Shown here in pieces: positions 2,206 through 26,774 of a stretch of 64,000 nt of DNA. The DNA is from a virus (lineage: Duplodnaviria; Heunggongvirae; Uroviricota; Caudoviricetes). Location of the stretch: the IMG/VR virus record IMGVR_UViG_3300017987_000047; one strand, written 5' to 3'. Both the position numbers and the translations under genes were made by a program. Numbering within the stretch: the stretch's first letter is position 1; each line of letters begins with the position of its first letter. A model generated the notes under the pieces. The model saw nothing but the letters and a program-made list of their open reading frames with translations, had not been told where the DNA came from and made no database searches.

Positions 2206-3636
2206 ATGAATAAGAACCGAGAAAAAAGTAAGAAAGTGGCTTGTGACTTCTCTTCGAGAAGTTCCCCCCTTTTTCTTAAAACCAAGATGTTTAAAGCAGC
2301 AAACTATATCTTTGAAAAGTTAAATGCTGCTGGGCACTCCACTTATTTCGCGGGTGGTTGTGTGCGGGATTCAATCCTAAAACTATCTATTAATGATATC
2401 GATATTGCCACTTCAGCAACCCCAGACGAAGTCCAAAAGCTTTTCAGGAAGTCTAAGGCGGTAGGGGCATCCTTCGGGGTTGTGCTTATTGATATTGATT
2501 CCATTCCGTTTGAAGTTGCTACTTTTAGGACTGATAGCTCTTATTCTGACGGGAGGCACCCCGATAAAGTAGAATACAGCAATGATCCCAAGATAGATAT
2601 CCAACGTAGGGACTTCACAATCAACGGTCTTTTCTATGATGCTAAAACCGACGAAGTCCTTGATGTTGTGGGGGGTGTTAAAGACCTGGAAGCCGGAAAG
2701 GTGCGAGCAATTGGTAACCCGGAAGAAAGGTTTGCAGAAGATTACCTCCGGATGTTACGTGCTGTTCGGTTTGCTGCACGGTTTGGATTTGATATTGAGG
2801 ACGAAACTCTGTTAGCAATTCGAGGGAATGCCCATAAAATAAATGACTTAGCCGCCGAAAGGGTTAAAGCGGAGCTTACTAAAATTTGGGCCGGACCCAA
2901 CCCTCACTATGCTCTAGATCTACTTCGGACAACTGGGCTTCTCCAAGAAATATTACCGGAAGTCGCAGCTCTAGAGGGGGTGGAGCAGCCAAAGAAATTC
3001 CACCCCGAGGGTGATGTTTATAATCATACATACTTTGCATTGAAAGCCATGTGGGAGGATTTGGGAGCTGATGTTTCTCCCACCCTTGCCTGGGGAGTTT
3101 TACTCCACGACATTGGCAAACCACGGACTGCTAAGATAAATAGGAGTGGCCGGGTCAGTTTTAATGGGCATGACCACGTTGGTGCGAAAATGGCAGAAAG
3201 GGTTTGTGAGCGTTTGAAATTTTCAAATGAAGAACGAGATTTAATTATTACCTTAGTCCGCAACCATATGAAATTCTTGGTTGCCCGTAATATGAAAACC
3301 GTAACTCTTAAGAAGTTTTTACGAACTGAGGGTTTTGATCAACTCTTACAATTACATAAATATGATTCACTGTCGGGAATCGGGGACCTTTCAAACTATG
3401 AATATACTCAACAAAAACTCGATGCTTTTGAAGCAGGCACCCTCCAAGACGGCCTCAGGCCGAAAATTCTCTTAAATGGCGAAAATTTGAAGGAATTGGG
3501 GTACGAACCGGGGCCCATGTTTGGCAAGTTCATTCGTGCTTTAGAGGACAAACAACTAAACGAAGAGATTAAGACTAAAGAAGAAGCAATTGGTTTTGCG
3601 CGAGTATACCTTGGGAAGGGTAAGAAGAATGTATAA
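2206..3636 (+). CDS. cca: CCA-adding tRNA nucleotidyltransferase / poly(A) polymerase family with HD domain
   Basis: GGCVRD...IDIAT nucleotidyltransferase motifs, HD region LLHDIGKP; strong RBS GAGGAG before ATG 2206. Confidence 0.85.
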   Translation: MNKNREKSKKVACDFSSRSSPLFLKTKMFKAANYIFEKLNAAGHSTYFAGGCVRDSILKLSINDIDIATSATPDEVQKLFRKSKAVGASFGVVLIDIDSIPFEVATFRTDSSYSDGRHPDKVEYSNDPKIDIQRRDFTINGLFYDAKTDEVLDVVGGVKDLEAGKVRAIGNPEERFAEDYLRMLRAVRFAARFGFDIEDETLLAIRGNAHKINDLAAERVKAELTKIWAGPNPHYALDLLRTTGLLQEILPEVAALEGVEQPKKFHPEGDVYNHTYFALKAMWEDLGADVSPTLAWGVLLHDIGKPRTAKINRSGRVSFNGHDHVGAKMAERVCERLKFSNEERDLIITLVRNHMKFLVARNMKTVTLKKFLRTEGFDQLLQLHKYDSLSGIGDLSNYEYTQQKLDAFEAGTLQDGLRPKILLNGENLKELGYEPGPMFGKFIRALEDKQLNEEIKTKEEAIGFARVYLGKGKKNV

Positions 3637-7042: not shown

Positions 7043-7114
7043 AAGCCGGTAGCTCAATTGGTTAGAGCGTCTGTCTTCCGGCGGATGATATGGGTTCGAA
7101 CCCCACCCGGCTTA
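7043..7114 (+). tRNA. tRNA-like gene, anticodon arm aberrant (anticodon not confidently assignable; possibly UUC/CCG), no encoded CCA
   Basis: Acceptor AAGCCGG/CCGGCTT, D-arm GCTC-AATTGGTTA-GAGC, T-arm ATGGG-TTCGAAC-CCCAC; anticodon stem only with G-U pairs. Confidence 0.45.
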
Positions 7115-7164
7115 TTTCAAAAAATTCCGGTTCACCTAACTTGGGTTTCTTAGGGTTAAAACAA

Positions 7165-7593
7165 ATGAAGCACTCAACGATCTGGCATGAAATTCCTCCG
7201 GAAGACACGGGCGCGATGAAGTGGCATACATTTCCGAAGTGGCTGGAAAAGGCACTCCGGAAATGGGCACGAAAAAATCTCGGTTTCTTCAAAAGCTTGT
7301 GGAGCACCCCCCAAGGCTTATTCGATCAACTGATTTTGGGTATCAACCACGAACACGGGATACCCGAATTTCATTGGCTTGATCATTGGGGAGCATCCAT
7401 CGCTGAAATCGATGGGGAAGTGTTAGACGTACTTTCTACCGAACCTTATACCCATTCCGATACCGAAGCAGGGTATAAGGCTTTTGCGGAAAGGCTTGAA
7501 CTTGAATACCGAGAAGTTTCTCCTGGGATTTACTTCCCGGGAGGAAAGAGATGTGTCTTTTATGAAAAACGTAGTTTAACTATCGCTTTTTAG
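7165..7593 (+). CDS. hypothetical protein
   Basis: ATG 7165 chosen over ATG 7090 that lies inside the tRNA T-arm (MGSNP artefact). Confidence 0.4.
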   Translation: MKHSTIWHEIPPEDTGAMKWHTFPKWLEKALRKWARKNLGFFKSLWSTPQGLFDQLILGINHEHGIPEFHWLDHWGASIAEIDGEVLDVLSTEPYTHSDTEAGYKAFAERLELEYREVSPGIYFPGGKRCVFYEKRSLTIAF

Positions 7594-8537: not shown

Positions 8538-8888
8538 ATGTCTGGAACTGGCGAATACGAAAAAGTCCTTGACAAAACTGCCGAGCTATGTGACACTGCT
8601 AAACGGTTGATCGCCGCTGGGTATTTCGGCATTTCAATTCATTCTGCTGATGGGCATCGTTGGATTGAAGTTAACGAAGAAGTCGAAACGAATCTCCAGG
8701 AGATGCTATCGCAAGCACAATTAACCCCAATTAGAAGTAAAGTTTACGGCTCTATCCTGGATGCTCTCGACCGGGTTGATGGTGCCCTGAAAACTTTGGG
8801 ACAACTCTCTCTACTCGAGACTTTCGAGAGTTATGATGAATGGGATGCGTGGGGATTAGCTCCCGCTGAAACGGGCCCTGAAAACTAG
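8538..8888 (+). CDS. hypothetical protein
   Basis: 116 aa ORF followed by terminator. Confidence 0.45.
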   Translation: MSGTGEYEKVLDKTAELCDTAKRLIAAGYFGISIHSADGHRWIEVNEEVETNLQEMLSQAQLTPIRSKVYGSILDALDRVDGALKTLGQLSLLETFESYDEWDAWGLAPAETGPEN

Positions 8889-9055: not shown

Positions 9056-9090
9056 GCCAAAAAAGGCCCCCAGCTAGGGGCCTTTTTTGT
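9056..9090. terminator. bidirectional rho-independent terminator (GGCCCC/GGGGCC hairpin)
   Basis: AAAAAA-GGCCCC-cagcta-GGGGCC-TTTTTT between convergent genes. Confidence 0.6.
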
Positions 9091-9111: not shown

Positions 9112-10008
9112 TTAAATTTTTTCAAGAAAATTGAGAGCAATTTTCTTAGCGCCAAACGCAGCAAAGGAAACTATTGCTGTGGGGGTCTCCCCCTCTATTA
9201 TTTTCTGAACAAACCCTTCCCCGAATTTGGAATGCCTAACTGGGTCTCCTTCAGAAATAGTTTCTTTAATAGTTTTCTCAATATACTCTGGTTCTATTTC
9301 TGTTCCCCAGTCTAAACCCCTTATAACCCCTTCTACCTCGCTTGCTATGAAGGAGCAGATCTCCTTGGATATCCCAGGATAGTGAACCTCGCCTTTAAGT
9401 TTTGGAAATTTGAAAGGAGCTGGCGCACCAAGGTTAACGCGATTGAATTGCTTTTGAACATTTTCTAAAATTCTCAATGCTTCCTGTTTAAGGGCGAAAC
9501 TTTTTATCTCCGAGTCGATAAATTCAGCAAGTTTTAGGGACAGTTCCCCTACGGGGAATTCATCCGGGTCGTCCCCTATTTCATCTGTTACCTCCGTTAT
9601 TGCATCTCTAACGGCTAGAACAAAGTTAGAAAGAATTTTCATCTCTTTATCTGTAAGAACAGCCCGCTCTATTTTAGTTGTCTGGCTTTTTGTATATTGT
9701 TTACGTGTTTCCCCCCGAACATCAGCTGGCTTTTCATCTAAAAGGATTAAGTTAGTTTCTGTTGGGATTTTTGCAACATTTCTTGCCGTCTGTTTAATCT
9801 CGCTTAGAGTTGCAGCGGGAGTATGTTCAATTGCTGAATGCCCCCCTGTTGCGAAATCGACTACAAAGCTAAAACCTGTTTCGGTTGGCCAGCATCTAAT
9901 GCCTTTTGCTTGTGGCCGGTCATCCCCCCGCTGCCTTCGCTGGGAAGCAAGCTTTTCAATCTCAAGAATAATTCGGTATAACTGTTTAGAAAAAGCTCGT
10001 TTATCCAT
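9112..10008 (-). CDS. hypothetical protein (module 3 of minus-strand gene chain)
   Basis: 298 aa; N-term SKQLYRIILEIEKLASQ helix motif shared with neighbours; start ATG abuts upstream TAA. Confidence 0.5.
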   Translation of the reverse strand: MDKRAFSKQLYRIILEIEKLASQRRQRGDDRPQAKGIRCWPTETGFSFVVDFATGGHSAIEHTPAATLSEIKQTARNVAKIPTETNLILLDEKPADVRGETRKQYTKSQTTKIERAVLTDKEMKILSNFVLAVRDAITEVTDEIGDDPDEFPVGELSLKLAEFIDSEIKSFALKQEALRILENVQKQFNRVNLGAPAPFKFPKLKGEVHYPGISKEICSFIASEVEGVIRGLDWGTEIEPEYIEKTIKETISEGDPVRHSKFGEGFVQKIIEGETPTAIVSFAAFGAKKIALNFLEKI

Positions 10009-10236
10009 TTAAGTCAAGTCCTTTATTTTCTTCTTATACTTTGAGATTCTTTTCTCAAGCATCTTTACCCAGCCCCCGTTATTTGTTGCTTTTGCCCGCT
10101 CCATATGCTTATATGCCGTCTTTTTCTTTTCTCGCCAGTATTTCAATTCTTCTGTCATAGTTTCAAATTTTTTGGCTAACTTTGCTAGCCCATCAGCGAC
10201 TTTATATAATTGAGAAGCATAAGCTTTCTTATTCAT
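10009..10236 (-). CDS. hypothetical protein (module 2)
   Basis: 75 aa; N-term ASQLYKVADGLAKLAKKFE; 8-nt overlap with upstream gene. Confidence 0.4.
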   Translation of the reverse strand: MNKKAYASQLYKVADGLAKLAKKFETMTEELKYWREKKKTAYKHMERAKATNNGGWVKMLEKRISKYKKKIKDLT

Positions 10237-11005
10237 TGTATTTCTTTTCTAAGTCACTAGCAACCCGGTAAAGAAGTTTTGCTAGGTGTGTTTTCTTTTC
10301 TATCCCGTCTTCTTCTGCCTTTGGCTCTGGAGCCTTACTCGGCTTAGGTGGCTGGAATGGATTCCTTTTGGGCTCTCGCTTGGGGGGATCTGTTTTCGGG
10401 TCTGTTTTCGGTTTCGTTGGGGCAGATGGTGCGGGTGATGTTGCAAGTTTTTTCTGAGCTGCCTGTTTATTCTCGGATGTATTTTTTCTTAACATCTCTT
10501 TCATCTCCTCTGGATTATCGATGATTCGACTAATGGTCGTATGCAATTCATCCGGCTCTAGTAAGGCCAAAAACATAATCGCTTCTGCTTTTTCTTTAGG
10601 GTTTGTGGGCAGAACTTTCAAAAGTTTTCGCCACAAGGCAGGTCCAGTATGAAAATGGTAAATCTCGTGTTCTAATTTATCTGCGTACTCATAAACTTTT
10701 GCTAATTCCGTAGGGTTTTCTGGAAGGCCGTGTGCTGTTAAAACTTCCATAACGCCTTTTGATAGTTCCTGTAAAAGGACTGGGAAGATGATCCCATGTG
10801 CCTTAACAATTACTTTCTCCTCGCCGTCCGCTTCCTGCCACTCAATTTCTTCACTGCCCGCTTTTTGTCCTAACTGTGTTGGGTTAGGGAGGGGAATGAA
10901 CCAAACACTATAGGCCATCCCGGCGATATTCTGGTCATATAATTTAAGCAAATTCTCGTCGATTTGCCTTAGCTTCTCCCCTGCCAGATGATGCAATGTT
11001 TTCAT
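10229..11005 (-). CDS. hypothetical protein with Pro/Lys-rich linker (module 1b)
   Basis: 258 aa; PAPSAPTKPKTDPKTDPPKREPKRNPFQPPKPSKAPEPK; C-term LAKLLYRVASDLEKKY. Confidence 0.5.
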   Translation of the reverse strand: MKTLHHLAGEKLRQIDENLLKLYDQNIAGMAYSVWFIPLPNPTQLGQKAGSEEIEWQEADGEEKVIVKAHGIIFPVLLQELSKGVMEVLTAHGLPENPTELAKVYEYADKLEHEIYHFHTGPALWRKLLKVLPTNPKEKAEAIMFLALLEPDELHTTISRIIDNPEEMKEMLRKNTSENKQAAQKKLATSPAPSAPTKPKTDPKTDPPKREPKRNPFQPPKPSKAPEPKAEEDGIEKKTHLAKLLYRVASDLEKKYNE

Positions 11006-11149
11006 CGCATTAATCGCAGAGCCCTGTGTTAGATTATTTAAGGTGATTCGTTTATCAATAAGCTTTTTGATATTTTCGGGGATCTCTCCTTCGAAAATTT
11101 TGTCTGCATCAAAATCAATTTCATCAGCACGCTGATCTGCTCCTTGTAC

Positions 11150-11467
11150 TCACCCACCTCCTGGGCCTAAGCATGCTTGAAATTCTATTTCATCTGTTAT
11201 TCCCCATAATTCTTTTGTAATTTGGATTGCTAAATCCTCAAGTTTCTTTCTATGCGGGGTTTCTATCTCAATTGCTTGTGGGACTAACGGCATCAAACTT
11301 GATGGGTTAAATTGAGTATGGCCATGAACTTTTTCGTGGTGAGCCTTTGCGTGCTCAAACTCCCCTTCTTCCCCGACAGCTAAATCCTCTCCATGGATCC
11401 TGAAAATAGGATGTTTCTTAAAAGGATGCGTTGCGTCTTCATATGTTCTTTTTACGCTGGGGTGCAT
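11150..11467 (-). CDS. hypothetical protein (module 1a); same reading frame as 10229..11005, separated by one in-frame TGA
   Basis: Ends ...ACLGPGGG-TGA; frame continues VQGADQRADEIDFDADKIFEGEIPENIKKLIDKRITLNNLTQGSAINAMKTLHH without stops. Confidence 0.45.
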   Translation of the reverse strand: MHPSVKRTYEDATHPFKKHPIFRIHGEDLAVGEEGEFEHAKAHHEKVHGHTQFNPSSLMPLVPQAIEIETPHRKKLEDLAIQITKELWGITDEIEFQACLGPGGG

Positions 11468-11999: not shown

Positions 12000-12020
12000 C
12001 CAAAAAATAAGAACAAAAAG

Positions 12021-12051
12021 AAAAGGGCGCTTTCCAGCGCCCTTTTCTTTT
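12021..12051. terminator. bidirectional rho-independent terminator
   Basis: AAAA-GGGCGCT-ttcc-AGCGCCC-TTTTCTTTT. Confidence 0.6.
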
Positions 12052-19156: not shown

Positions 19157-19332
19157 AAAGAAAATAAATTTCGAACATTTTTCCCAAGATTTCTTTTATA
19201 TATTAGGTACCAAAGGGGGGCAGCAAACGCCCACCAGTAATACCCGGTAGCCGGGATTAAAACTGAGGCATTGCTTGTTACGGCCATGTGCCGTACGGCA
19301 CTTTCTGGAGCCCAAAAGCTCCTGCCTCAGAT

Positions 19333-19417
19333 GGGTGCGTCGCTCAGTTCGGCCGAGAGCACTGGCCTTTTAAGCCAGCGGAGTAATCCCACGTAGGTTC
19401 GAATCCTACCGCACCCA
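19333..19417 (+). tRNA. tRNA with Lys-type anticodon loop CUUUUAA (UUU) but 14-nt variable arm; atypical
   Basis: Acceptor GGGTGCG/CGCACCC, D GCTC..GAGC, anticodon stem CTGGC/GCCAG, T-arm GTAGG-TTCGAAT-CCTAC; no CCA. Confidence 0.6.
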
Positions 19418-19567
19418 TGAGCGATAGTTTAATAGGTTGTGGTTCTAGCTTAACCAAAGCATTCGGCTTAATCCCGAAAGATTTGGGTTAGAGTCCCAAG
19501 ACCACAGTCCGCAAAATACCAGGCACTCGCCAGCCTGGAGATGCAGGTTCAAATCCTGCTCGCTCAA
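19418..19567 (+). ncRNA. ~150-nt tRNA-like element: 7-bp terminal stem TGAGCGA/TCGCTCA plus canonical T-arm, with inserted core containing an inner tRNA-like cloverleaf (19438..19507, anticodon loop CTTAATC, T-loop TTAGAGT)
   Basis: T-arm GCAGG-TTCAAAT-CCTGC at 3' end; no D-arm found for outer molecule. Confidence 0.3.
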
Positions 19568-19573
19568 GTGGTT

Positions 19574-19656
19574 GGGGGAGTGGTGGAATGGCAGACACTG
19601 GGGCCTTAAAAGCCCTTGACCGTACGGTCGTGTGGGTTCGAATCCCACCTCCCCTA
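19574..19656 (+). tRNA. tRNA-Leu (anticodon UAA), class II with long variable arm
   Basis: Acceptor GGGGGAG/CTCCCCT, anticodon stem GGGGC/GCCCT loop CTTAAAA, variable stem GACC-gtac-GGTC, T-arm GTGGG-TTCGAAT-CCCAC. Confidence 0.75.
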
Positions 19657-20033
19657 CTTCTTTGAGAGGTTACGGGACCAGGCTAAGAACCCGTTAACCG
19701 GCCGTAGTATTTTCGTCTGGGAGAATGCTACTGGGTCTGGCCCAGCCGAGAATGGGCTATCAAAATTTGATCTGCTGCGGTGGTCCCTACCACTGTCGGT
19801 TTGGGTGGTCACTACCACTTGGTTGCTACCTCTAGGTTGGAAAGGGTAGAGCAGTTCAATGAAACGCGGTGGCCTGCTTACGGAGTGCCAAACGTCGATG
19901 GCAATGACGTAAAAAACACCATTATAGCGAGACTGGGCCTAAGCTGGATAATGAGGTCGCTATAACGTGGGTACTACGTGAGTGTACCTAGGACCAATGG
20001 TTCCCGACATTGGACACCGAAACAAGCGGGAAA

Positions 20034-22500: not shown

Positions 22501-23373
22501 ATGGGCTGTATTGAAAAAATCTATAGTGTTTCTGCTCTTACAGGGAATGGGGCTTGTAACGCAAATTGTGCGTTTTGTGCCGGGAAGTATTTGAGGGAAG
22601 AAGCAAAAGCAAGCGATAAAAACTCTTATGATCGCCTGTTGGAAGCATCCATTAAACTTTCTGCGCGGTACGGTGGATGGTCTCTTTCCTTTACTTCAAG
22701 CGGCGAGCCTACCTGTGACCCAGAGGCTGTTACTTCTGCTTTACAAATCTATTCTAAGTGCGCAAAGGAAGGGGCATATTTCCCAAACGTTAATCTGTTC
22801 ACAAATGGTATTCTTTTCGGGGATACTCCTTTCTGCACGAAATACCTACCGCTTTGGAAAGAATTAGGGTTAAGCAATATTGTAGTTTCTGTTTTTGACG
22901 AAGACGAGAAAAACCAAGCAAAAGCGTATGGCTTAAAAACATACCCTGATTATACAAAGATTGTCGAAAACGCCCGAAAACATGGAATAGGAGTAAGAGC
23001 AACTTTATTGCTTGGAAAAGGTGGGGTTGAGAATGGTAAGAAGTACGAGCAAGCAGTAACCACTCTTATCTCAAAAGGAATTAAGAATATTACATCCTGG
23101 CCAGTTGGAAATCCCGATGGATCAAGGAATGAATTTACCCCATCCCGACTAGGGCTTCTAAGTATTCGATGGTGGCTTTTTAGAAATGCAAAGAAATGTC
23201 ATGGACATGTTTGGGGTGGTGGGGTTTATGATTATAAGGGTAGCATTTTAAGATATACAGATTATGTAACAAAGCATGACCCTAAGAAGGATTTTGTGCG
23301 CCAGCTTGTTGTTTTTCAAAATGATGTTGTGGCATATTCATGGATCAGGGAAGGCGCTCTATGTCTAAAGTAA
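22501..23373 (+). CDS. radical SAM domain protein
   Basis: CxxxCxxC = CNANCAFC; SSGEPT glycine-rich SAM motif. Confidence 0.7.
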   Translation: MGCIEKIYSVSALTGNGACNANCAFCAGKYLREEAKASDKNSYDRLLEASIKLSARYGGWSLSFTSSGEPTCDPEAVTSALQIYSKCAKEGAYFPNVNLFTNGILFGDTPFCTKYLPLWKELGLSNIVVSVFDEDEKNQAKAYGLKTYPDYTKIVENARKHGIGVRATLLLGKGGVENGKKYEQAVTTLISKGIKNITSWPVGNPDGSRNEFTPSRLGLLSIRWWLFRNAKKCHGHVWGGGVYDYKGSILRYTDYVTKHDPKKDFVRQLVVFQNDVVAYSWIREGALCLK

Positions 23374-24146
23374 CTAGCTTATCCCTTTTTGTAGGGACAG
23401 GAAAATGTAATGCGAAGTGTAAACACTGTGCCGGAGTGCCCCTTCGAGAATATGCTCCTAAGACAGATGGTGACGTTGACCTAGAACATCTTTTTCAAGT
23501 CCTACAAGAATGCGCCGCAAAAGGCGCTCACTATCTCTCAATAACTAGCAGTGGGGAACCGACGCTCTCCCCGGAGTCGTTAACTAAGGTTCTACAATTT
23601 ATTAAAGATAAGAAATTTAGGTTTTCGCCTATTAACCTTTACACTAATGGAATTCGAATCGGAGAAGACCTAGAATTTAGTAACCGTTTTCTACCTTTAT
23701 GGGCAAGTCTTGGGTTAACATCCCTATATGTCACCATTCACAGTATAGATGAAAAAGTGAATGCAAAAACATATGGGGTTGGGCAATACCCTCCCTTAAA
23801 ACTTATCTTAGAAAGAATACACCGAGCGGGATTATTGATGAGAGCGAATATTATGTTGCATAAAGCTGGGATTTTTTCTTTACAAGATTTTCAATTAACT
23901 ACCCAGCACCTACTTGCTCTTGGGGTTGACAAGATTTCTGCTTGGCCCATCAGGAATCTTAAGGATAAAGTTGACTTAGACTTAGCCCCTTCTATAAAGG
24001 TATTAGGCTCCATTGAATCCTGGATAAAGAAGCAGGATTTAGATGAAAGGATAAAACTTACCCAAGCAAAGGGAAAGAAGTCAAAGGTTGGGGGGAAACT
24101 TACTTTGTTTCCAAACGGAAAGCTTTCCAGTTCCTGGTGTAATTAG
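23340..24146 (+). CDS. radical SAM domain protein (paralog of upstream gene)
   Basis: CNAKCKHC, TSSGEPT, same NxYTNGI...FLPLW pattern as 22501..23373. Confidence 0.7.
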   Translation: MDQGRRSMSKVTSLSLFVGTGKCNAKCKHCAGVPLREYAPKTDGDVDLEHLFQVLQECAAKGAHYLSITSSGEPTLSPESLTKVLQFIKDKKFRFSPINLYTNGIRIGEDLEFSNRFLPLWASLGLTSLYVTIHSIDEKVNAKTYGVGQYPPLKLILERIHRAGLLMRANIMLHKAGIFSLQDFQLTTQHLLALGVDKISAWPIRNLKDKVDLDLAPSIKVLGSIESWIKKQDLDERIKLTQAKGKKSKVGGKLTLFPNGKLSSSWCN

Positions 24147-25721: not shown

Positions 25722-26066
25722 ATGGATTTACGATTACATACCTTATATAGTGTTGGGGTTGAGAGTGAAGATGTATATTTTCCTTTCAACTTTTTCTATT
25801 TTCTAGACCTCGATCCCTTTGCAGAGTACAGAAAACATGGGGTTGTGCTTTTTTCTGAAGGAAGCTTTTTTATCTCAGATGCTGTTAAATACTACTACGG
25901 CGCCTTGAAAAATCCCTATCCTCATATACCATCGGCGAAGGTAAAGATAAAAGAAGTTCCTCTTGAAACATTACTCACTCACGAAGAACCGGGGTACAGG
26001 AAAAAAGGGAAAGAGCTTTTAACTATGAAAAGGTCGCAACGACCCATAATAACTGTTAAAAAATGA
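25722..26066 (+). CDS. LTH-tail family protein, degenerate tail (LLTHEEPGYRKKGKELL)
   Basis: 114 aa. Confidence 0.45.
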   Translation: MDLRLHTLYSVGVESEDVYFPFNFFYFLDLDPFAEYRKHGVVLFSEGSFFISDAVKYYYGALKNPYPHIPSAKVKIKEVPLETLLTHEEPGYRKKGKELLTMKRSQRPIITVKK

Positions 26067-26106
26067 CATAGAATTTATTTCTCACGGTGTTCCTTTGGTT
26101 TTCCCC

Positions 26107-26129
26107 ATATTTTAAATATAGGTACGACC
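26107..26129 (+). promoter_or_regulatory. promoter-like motif ATATTTTAAATATAGGTACGACC
   Basis: Near-identical to 43174..43200 (ATATTTTAAATATAGGAAGGTACC). Confidence 0.4.
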
Positions 26130-26159
26130 AATGCCCAAACAGCAAGGAAAGAAAGACTC

Positions 26160-26774
26160 ATGGGAAGCCTATTCTATAACATTGCAACAGCAAACCTTGA
26201 AGAAATCAAAGGTCTCCTAAAAGACTGTGGTGGGGAACAAGCCACCAAAGGAAAAATAGATCAAATGATTCAGCAGTTTTCTATCTCAAGAAAACTCATT
26301 CAAAAAGGAATAACTGTTGAGCGGCTAACCGAAATAATTGCAGCGTTGCGTTATATTCAAGCTGAAAGCCCTCTTTCGGCGAAAAAGAAAAAGAAGAAAG
26401 GGTCAAAGAGCCCTTATAAGCGTTTGAGGCGGCTTACTATAGAAGAGGTCCTTCCCCACATTGGGCAAGAGGGGAAAGTTGACTTTGAGGGGCATCTCGT
26501 TAAATGTAATTCGCGTAGGCTTGTAATATTCAAGGAATCCCTTGCTTGTACTACTTGCGGCTTAAAAGGGAGTTTCTTTGCTGTGGAGACTTTTAGAAGA
26601 GGCAATCAGCAGACGCCTCATTTGAACCTTTACGCTCTTAATGACAAGGGCAACGAAGTTTTGATGACAATCGATCATATAAAGCCGAAATCTCTGGGGG
26701 GCGGCGACGAGTTTGAAAACCTACAAACCATGTGCGCTCCTTGCAATTCGGCTAAAGGGTCGATTCCAGGGTAA
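26160..26774 (+). CDS. HNH endonuclease
   Basis: IDHIKPKSLGGGDEFENLQTMCAPCNSAKG. Confidence 0.75.
   Translation: MGSLFYNIATANLEEIKGLLKDCGGEQATKGKIDQMIQQFSISRKLIQKGITVERLTEIIAALRYIQAESPLSAKKKKKKGSKSPYKRLRRLTIEEVLPHIGQEGKVDFEGHLVKCNSRRLVIFKESLACTTCGLKGSFFAVETFRRGNQQTPHLNLYALNDKGNEVLMTIDHIKPKSLGGGDEFENLQTMCAPCNSAKGSIPG

Follow-up and report, generated by a model that had tools for sequence, protein, structure and literature searches.

We identified a conserved tailed-phage gene, designated gene 1, that is interrupted by a unique premature stop codon on the minus strand of IMG/VR virus record IMGVR_UViG_3300017987_000047 (Caudoviricetes). The whole stretch of DNA that was analyzed, 64,000 nucleotides (nt), is referred to as the window. 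Positions 11467..10229 form a single 413-codon frame (105 codons, TGA, 306 codons and TAA), whose only internal stop is the TGA at 11152..11150, codon 106. The feature is of an ordinary kind, and the stop is probably a lineage-specific nonsense codon, either recent or tolerated, perhaps by means of the ordinary percent-level leak of UGA. As it stands, the result is mainly an annotation correction, in which the open reading frames (ORFs) of 105 and 258 amino acids (aa) called in this region represent one interrupted gene.

Organization of the interrupted gene

The original prediction, made from the sequence alone, had pointed to a pair of same-frame ORFs parted by TGA with no other stop in 144 nt, and both the coordinates and the sequence were reproduced. 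The N-terminal piece (codons 1–105, 11153..11467, minus strand, as are all parts of the gene) was called as the 105-aa ORF P0012 and contains HP...HP motifs and the conserved residues E69, L76 and A80. It runs into the TGA as ...EFQACLGPGGG*VQGADQRADEIDFD..., with three Gly codons (GGA GGT GGG) as 5' neighbors of the stop and G as the adjacent 3' base. The next 48 codons (11006..11149) are family-like, contain no further stop and lead to the first ATG after the TGA, at 11005, 144 nt downstream. From this ATG the remainder of gene 1 (10229..11005), defined by alignment and an AlphaFold2 model, was called as the 258-aa ORF P0001. It comprises a conserved core, FPVLLQELSKGVMEVLTAHGLP...AD..E.E....GP.LW, which reaches as far as residue 338 (position 10454), a Pro-rich linker, APSAPTKP...NPFQPPKP...PEPKA (10453..10286), and a C-terminal helix (10288..10238). 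If the TGA is read, the tryptic peptide spanning the stop would be ELWGITDEIEFQACLGPGGG[W/C/R/G]VQGADQR. Two further genes, designated genes 2 and 3, follow directly downstream and are described below.

None of the 48 codons between the TGA and ATG 11005 is an in-frame ATG, GTG or TTG. Near-start codons in this interval are limited to ATT and ATC, which are badly spaced relative to two Shine-Dalgarno (SD)-like motifs that flank the stop. One of these, AGGAGGTG (11155..11162), abuts the TGA on its 5' side and also codes for part of Pro-Gly-Gly-Gly; the other, AAGGAG, lies 5 nt past the TGA, and neither is followed by an in-frame canonical start. No SD precedes ATG 11005. The two flanking motifs, read from the DNA letters, may have a functional role.

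Homologs are continuous across the stop site

A search with the fused translation of both pieces as query matched the exact 258-aa P0001 and ten homologs of 368–680 aa (25–44% identity), all ten of which aligned without a break through the TGA position. A scan of IMG/VR revealed more than 513 related loci; the stop site was checked in the 80 that were kept, and in every one of them the match was a single tblastn segment within one ORF spanning the site. A stop at the TGA position was present in none of the 10 protein homologs and none of the 80 IMG/VR loci, and comparison of orthologs at this codon, as had been proposed, identified the column as a variable acidic or Gly linker without Cys. In an 81-sequence family alignment, K139, R140, N144 and G149 are 96–100% conserved, and all four are present in gene 1 between the TGA and ATG 11005. 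The latter aligns as an ancestral internal Met codon.

As no homolog is broken at the site, the two ORFs are two pieces of one ancestral gene, and the idea of one frame broken by a TGA is strongly upheld (90 of 90 relatives continuous). The called 258-aa ORF is a gene-caller artifact with a false start, since conserved residues precede ATG 11005 in a stretch that lacks a canonical start. The opposite pattern, an independent start downstream and orthologs that never fuse the two parts, was not found: the downstream part has no such start and all orthologs are fused.

Position of the stop in the predicted fold and possible gene fission

An AlphaFold2 model of the read-through product, built on an 11-sequence alignment, had a mean predicted local distance difference test (pLDDT) score of 78.7 and a predicted template modeling (pTM) score of 0.75. 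Confident parts of the model were residues 1–103 (pLDDT 86–97) and 127–338, and pLDDT was below 50 for residues 104–126, which include codon 106, as well as for the Pro-rich residues 339–394. This model places the stop in a variable linker, predicted to be disordered, that joins two parts whose fold is confident. In homologs, the linker is acidic or Gly/Pro and variable in sequence and length (for example, GPMDMGGGDD in P0003 and GETGPPPEEEPEEEEE in L008).

A stop in such a linker could also represent gene fission, in which two polypeptides assemble non-covalently and the C-terminal piece is made by re-initiation or from a non-canonical codon. We regard this as quite improbable. The break would fall in a disordered loop, and the well-folded parts on either side of it are joined by the model in one domain (pTM 0.75), with strand 94–100 of the N-terminal piece in the same model as hairpin 204–225 of the C-terminal piece, and SD-like motifs are present on both sides of the stop. 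In addition, the family splits and fuses at another linker, an upstream Pro-rich module being separate in L042 and L043 and fused in L079. However, there is no in-frame ATG, GTG or TTG for 144 nt from which the C-terminal piece could be made, only the poorly spaced ATT and ATC codons, and ATG 11005, which lacks an SD, falls within predicted helix 131–169 of the model, so that translation from it would lose the invariant K139 and R140.

Natural stand-alone halves, which fission would predict, were not found either. A word-indexed search for stand-alone N-terminal fragments returned only the query itself. An exhaustive profile search with the N-terminal part (E ≤ 0.001) detected 766 family representatives at 50% identity, with ∼20 short proteins among the best 150. 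Three of these were checked on their contigs: two contained frameshifts at A-runs in short Logan contigs (L088 and L089), and the third (L090) had an in-frame TAA on a 657-nt contig with 1.27x coverage. From sequence alone, most of the other short proteins run out at a contig edge or into Illumina adapter. Short N-terminal fragments were therefore rejected as a recurrent natural split, none being reliable among these edge, adapter, frameshift and low-coverage artifacts. The frame changes in L088 (2470–2500) and L089 (830–935), distant family members that come from different sequencing runs, both lie in the same linker, at the A-rich GAAATAAAAC and AGAATAAAAC, and L089 carries a second shift at CTAAAAGAAG; these shifts are probably homopolymer errors in short Logan contigs.

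Occurrence of the TGA in other assemblies

Each of the four ORF products of this region was carried by 4 contigs, drawn from JGI, Logan and ENA, and P0001 was found on contigs of up to 384 kb. A second haplotype was represented by contigs from ENA ERZ27256770 and Logan SRR14699969/SRR14699967 and had the same TGA. The haplotypes differ by 7 single-nucleotide polymorphisms (SNPs) in the ∼24.7 kb compared, none of them in the operon. The SNPs (window positions 8660 and 8670; 415, 456 and 467; 63305 and 63326) form pairs or triplets spanning 10–50 nt and suggest locally hypervariable sites or patches of recombination. When sense-codon variants were sought by pattern scans that allowed NNN at the stop, no match was obtained in viral_contigs or metagenome_contigs, and the phage is thus absent from both collections.

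A sequencing or assembly error, with a sense codon as the true state, is the least probable of the explanations that we considered. All copies come from metagenome assemblies that possibly share reads, and the haplotypes differ at only 7 positions. Against an error, the identical TGA is shared by both haplotypes and by the contigs of three pipelines or sources, the difference is of the substitution type rather than a homopolymer indel, and the contigs of 335–384 kb are presumably well covered.

Tests for recoding of TGA

The original prediction had offered programmed stop-codon readthrough or recoding as an explanation. This was not borne out: besides the absence of the stop from all 90 relatives, TGA is a normal terminator in the window, no suppressor tRNA was found and RNA structure near the stop was not significant. 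Of the 123 ORFs chosen greedily in the window, 26 (21%) end in TGA, many of them as ATGA overlaps, the standard-code coding density of the window is 87%, and dropping TGA as a stop lengthens ORFs no more than dropping TAG does. In TGA-recoded phages, the recoded stop is depleted, standard-code density is low and in-frame stops are concentrated in late genes, and in a close relative of recoded phages only 2.7% of ORFs were TGA-terminated (10.1101/2021.08.26.457843). Within the 64-kb window, neither depletion of TGA, low density nor many in-frame copies were seen, and genome-wide reassignment of TGA was ruled out by stop usage and ORF statistics. A second TGA-split gene was not present in the window. 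The only other sizeable same-frame ORF pair with a TGA between its members (25722–26774) was rejected as a split gene: the two ORFs (25722–26066 and 26160–26774, the latter an HNH endonuclease) are two genes separated by a non-coding-looking spacer with promoter-like and ribosome-binding-site-like sequence.

We also searched the window and ∼18 kb of flanking sequence (L091 and L093; ∼82 kb in total) with ARAGORN and Rfam. Five tRNA or tRNA-like genes were detected in the window and one tRNA-Met in the flanks, and neither the suppressor tRNA with anticodon UCA that had been suggested nor a Trp (CCA) tRNA was present in these ∼82 kb. A tRNA-like gene at 7043–7114 was considered as a suppressor and rejected, since its UCC-containing 6-nt loop or UUCC tetraloop cannot pair with UGA in the normal way.

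These data bear on a stage-specific code change, in which a UGA-decoding tRNA (a UCA suppressor or an altered tRNA-Trp) would be encoded elsewhere in the ∼384-kb genome and late genes would be translated with TGA as a sense codon, as happens in TGA-recoded gut phages. The similarity to TGA-recoded (code 4) phages lies in the in-frame TGA, the large size of the phage and the usual location of the family in the late terminase/portal module (68 of ∼84 related loci). Recoded phages hold their in-frame stops in late genes, and suppressor tRNAs were detected in only 35–40% of them (Borges et al., 10.1101/2021.08.26.457843). UGA can moreover be read by tRNA-Trp variants that retain the CCA anticodon and are missed by anticodon inspection (PMC13092985), and our survey took in ∼82 kb of this genome. 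In contrast to code 4 phages, TGA is not depleted here (21% of window ORFs compared with the 2.7% cited above), coding density is normal, the in-frame TGA is a single event in 64 kb, and none of the six tRNA or tRNA-like genes in ∼82 kb is a suppressor or Trp tRNA. A code change therefore seems very unlikely; a non-obvious UGA-reading tRNA, encoded elsewhere in the genome and switching gene 1 on late in infection, would be a more remote variant of the selected leaky stop discussed next.

Programmed readthrough without a change of code was examined in the same manner. The region downstream of the stop is coding and conserved, as its 306 codons align to the family. The stop is not conserved in orthologs, and neither a stimulatory 3' context nor a stimulatory RNA structure was detected: no significant structure occurred around or after the stop (minimum free energy z = −0.66 versus shuffles), and a small hairpin near it, GCCCA/UGGGU, was not significant. 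Selenocysteine insertion was rejected as well; the proposed search for a downstream element resembling a selenocysteine insertion sequence (SECIS) revealed no significant structure, and the aligned column has no Cys.

A possible selected leaky stop

In a rival explanation, the stop itself would be selected to leak, setting the ratio of the 105-aa product to the 412-aa full-length protein. Near-cognate readthrough could give rise to the full-length protein, as could a short in-frame hop in which peptidyl-tRNA-Gly leaves GGG, passes over UGA-GUA-CAA and lands on a GGA 12 nt downstream. Several observations fit such a stop. The frame is intact, with conserved residues downstream and no alternative start, and in a disordered, Gly-rich linker an inserted residue or a 3-residue deletion would be harmless. 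A strong SD-like motif, AGGAGGUG, abuts the stop on the 5' side, and a Gly codon, GGA (in AAGGAG), lies two codons past it. Downstream genes rely on ribosomes reaching the end of gene 1 (8-nt overlap and weak SD of gene 2), and the TGA is present in both haplotypes. UGA is also the leakiest stop, with a leak of ∼2–4% in Escherichia coli reporters, where Trp-tRNA competes with RF2 (PMC10570021).

However, none of the 90 relatives has a stop at this site, RNA structure is not significant, and nothing indicates an independent role for the 105-aa fragment, short N-terminal fragments found in the database being artifacts. The base after the stop (+4) is G in 5 of the 26 TGA-terminated ORFs, gene 1 included. 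In E. coli, G after the stop is not known as a weak-termination context, which also speaks against a selected leaky stop. We consider such a stop unlikely, and hold the same doubt about its fuller form, a leaky TGA helped by the flanking SD-like motifs that would also act as a gate for translation of genes 2 and 3, coupled downstream.

The hop resembles known cases of translational bypassing, which include T4 gene 60, with a gap of 50 nt, and short hops over stops in E. coli. Here, too, a Gly codon is followed by a stop and, shortly downstream, by a synonymous Gly codon, with an SD-like sequence nearby (GGG-UGA, with GGA 12 nt downstream). Unlike T4 gene 60, the gap is 9 nt, the take-off and landing codons (GGG and GGA) are synonymous rather than identical, and neither a take-off stem-loop nor a nascent-peptide signal was identified. 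The likeness to bypassing is purely a resemblance in sequence.

A probable lineage-specific nonsense codon

The explanation that we favor, and consider probable, is a lineage-specific nonsense codon. A TGA would have arisen at codon 106, in the disordered linker of a conserved tailed-phage gene of a huge uncultivated phage. Most ribosomes would terminate there and release the 105-aa fragment, and full-length protein would be made only through near-cognate leak at UGA, where Trp-tRNA competes with RF2. The mutation may be recent, with no decay yet, or tolerated; tolerance is plausible because an inserted residue would be harmless at this site and a small amount of full-length protein may suffice. 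Genes 2 and 3 are separate, translationally coupled genes of the same operon. Both the amount of full-length product and whether the gene still functions are points that we infer.

This arrangement is similar to nonsense-interrupted phage and bacterial genes, in which one premature stop is absent from homologs, the frame is otherwise intact and recoding signals are lacking. It differs from them in that there is no second lesion, conserved residues are kept, the gene is apparently the sole copy and it heads a coupled operon, and for these reasons residual function of gene 1 is plausible. Another comparison is with the coat/A1 readthrough of phage Q-beta, where, as here, a short product and a longer one would result if Trp-tRNA reads an in-frame UGA. 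The UGA of Q-beta is conserved and is followed by an extension that adds a domain, whereas the stop in gene 1 cuts a single conserved fold and is absent from all relatives.

Several points weigh against a simple nonsense mutation. The 306 codons downstream of the TGA have no second lesion and no visible decay, and the protein retains every column with ≥95% conservation, together with 38 of the 47 columns with ≥80% conservation. The coupling of genes 2 and 3 to gene 1 is tight, and a polar nonsense codon should be costly. No paralog was found in the same genome in a protein search, and there was no other match from a 384-kb contig; gene 1 is thus likely the sole copy of a widely conserved family in this genome, which makes simple loss less comfortable. 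Of the roughly 384-kb genome, the survey for tRNAs covered ∼82 kb and that for split genes the 64-kb window. Finally, only two near-identical haplotypes are available, and fixation of the TGA in them says little.

The retained fraction of the columns at least 80% conserved, 0.81, is at position 13 from the bottom of the 81 sequences (median 0.96), a set drawn mostly from a different, marine clade, and we read this lower score as probable clade divergence rather than decay. Relatives with an identity between 44% and 100%, by which the stop could be dated, are lacking. A long-standing pseudogene was excluded by the single lesion and by the strongly conserved residues, all intact; the lack of decay excludes a long-dead pseudogene and is compatible with continued function, and if gene 1 is a pseudogene, the event must be recent. 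The original prediction had mentioned a recently inactivated gene as a second option. This fits better than recoding, with the qualification that the conserved residues are intact, the stop is present in both haplotypes and the gene may be partly functional. If the readthrough rate proves useful, gene 1 would provide a natural nonsense codon tolerated or exploited in the disordered linker of a conserved phage protein, and such a codon would represent a small step on the proposed route to stop-codon recoding in phages.

The gene 1 protein family

The family to which gene 1 belongs has no sequence match in Pfam, PHROG or PDB. One structure in BFVD, an uncharacterized phage protein, matches it, no DNA match was found in INPHARED, and a protein search for annotated relatives identified only two unannotated uncultured phages of 635–642 kb. 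In 68 of ∼84 related loci, the family gene is located directly upstream of the genes for large terminase and T4-type portal; this position is not shared by the nearest relatives of the window gene. A family that is missing from Pfam and PHROGs, with more than 513 IMG/VR loci and 766 representatives, deserves its own characterization.

Weak scores were obtained between the family and proteins with the zincin-like metallopeptidase fold (M32 carboxypeptidases, minigluzincins, SprT/Wss1 and YbeY). Identity as a zincin was rejected, as there is no HExxH motif: in its place, the window has QELSK and the majority of members HELxK. Conservation of the His in this family helix is only 84%, and several members have Q, R or E instead.

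The Pro-rich motif, APSAPTKP...P[FY]xPPKP...PKPKA, occurs in different places relative to the domain. It is C-terminal to the domain in the window protein, P0002 and L008, and N-terminal in P0003–P0006 and P0008; in L042 and L043 the upstream gene ends with it, and in L079 it forms the linker of a fused protein. Its sites include 10286–10453 (minus strand) in the window, 6057–6362 in L008, 1571–2491 in L042 and 3849–6155 in L079. The motif is conserved in very distant members and is present in 2–3 copies in P0003, L008 and L042. It has the appearance of a mobile motif used for binding or as a linker.

Genes 2 and 3

Gene 2 (10009..10236, minus strand) codes for a 75-aa, lysine-rich, helical ORFan with the N-terminal helix AYASQLYKVADGLAKLA at 10224..10174, and gene 3 (9112..10008, minus strand) for a 298-aa ORFan with the N-terminal helix AFSKQLYRIILEIEKLA at 9996..9946. 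No homologs of either gene were found, those of gene 3 being absent among 5.8 billion proteins. Gene 1 overlaps gene 2 by 8 nt (ATGAATAA, 10236..10229), gene 2 abuts gene 3 at TAAATG (10011..10006), and the SD of gene 2, as read from the sequence, is weak. An intrinsic-terminator-like hairpin with a T-run (9058..9089, minus strand), which gave weak leader- or terminator-like matches in Rfam, ends the four-ORF unit, and a similar hairpin (12051..12016, minus strand) ends the preceding one. Because these two strong hairpins bracket them, the four ORFs form one transcription unit. A chain of genes joined through these junctions had been proposed; the 8-nt overlap and the TAA-ATG abutment were confirmed, whereas a recoding chain was not, and the junctions are ordinary coupled-gene boundaries in one operon.

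The N-termini of gene 2 (MNKKAYASQLYKVADGLAKLA) and gene 3 (MDKRAFSKQLYRIILEIEKLA) were the top pair of 10,296 N-terminal pairs in the window, with a BLOSUM62 score of 42, 6.2 standard deviations above the mean, and were reciprocal best 17-mers among 17,321. The C-terminal helix of gene 1 (HLAKLLYRVASDLEKKY) had a marginal likeness to them (E = 0.005 versus 144 proteins with a leave-one-out profile), and its 17-mer scores of 23–28 were inside the background of 25–30. No repeat underlying the helix motif was found at the DNA level. Of the triplicated helix described earlier, a duplicated N-terminal helix of genes 2 and 3 is therefore credible and the third copy, in gene 1, is marginal. The helix shared by genes 2 and 3 could be an interaction or targeting helix.

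Other features of the window and its flanks

The tRNA-like gene at 7043–7114 (plus strand) matched the Rfam tRNA model with 50.7 bits and was reported by ARAGORN as 'tRNA-???'. It has a perfect acceptor stem, D-arm and T-arm, and its anticodon arm, UCUGU-CUUCCG-GCGGA, forms either a 6-nt loop or a 6-bp stem with a UUCC tetraloop, with no normal 7-nt loop. The gene overlaps the start of ORF 7090–7593, and the second haplotype carries an identical copy. Possible identities are a degenerate tRNA and a decoy or variant linked to anticodon-nuclease defense. A tRNA-repair-like set is located just upstream (L091, 6222–11431) and includes a T4 Rnl1-type RNA ligase, a P-loop kinase and a CCA-adding enzyme.

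Another unusual site is 19332–19510 (plus strand), which contains an 87-nt tRNA with a long variable arm (class II shape) and anticodon UUU (Lys), and also a 74-nt tRNA of class I shape with anticodon UAA (Leu). A normal class II tRNA-Leu(UAA) is next, at 19574–19657. A GC-rich, non-coding-looking segment of ∼370 nt (19660–20030) lies between tRNA genes and had no Rfam match at the gathering threshold. Additional genes of the window include a CCA-adding enzyme/poly(A) polymerase with an HD domain (2206–3636), two adjacent radical-SAM genes (22501–24146) and the HNH endonuclease (26160–26774). Together with 109 small plus-strand ORFs, these genes are typical of an accessory region of a huge phage.

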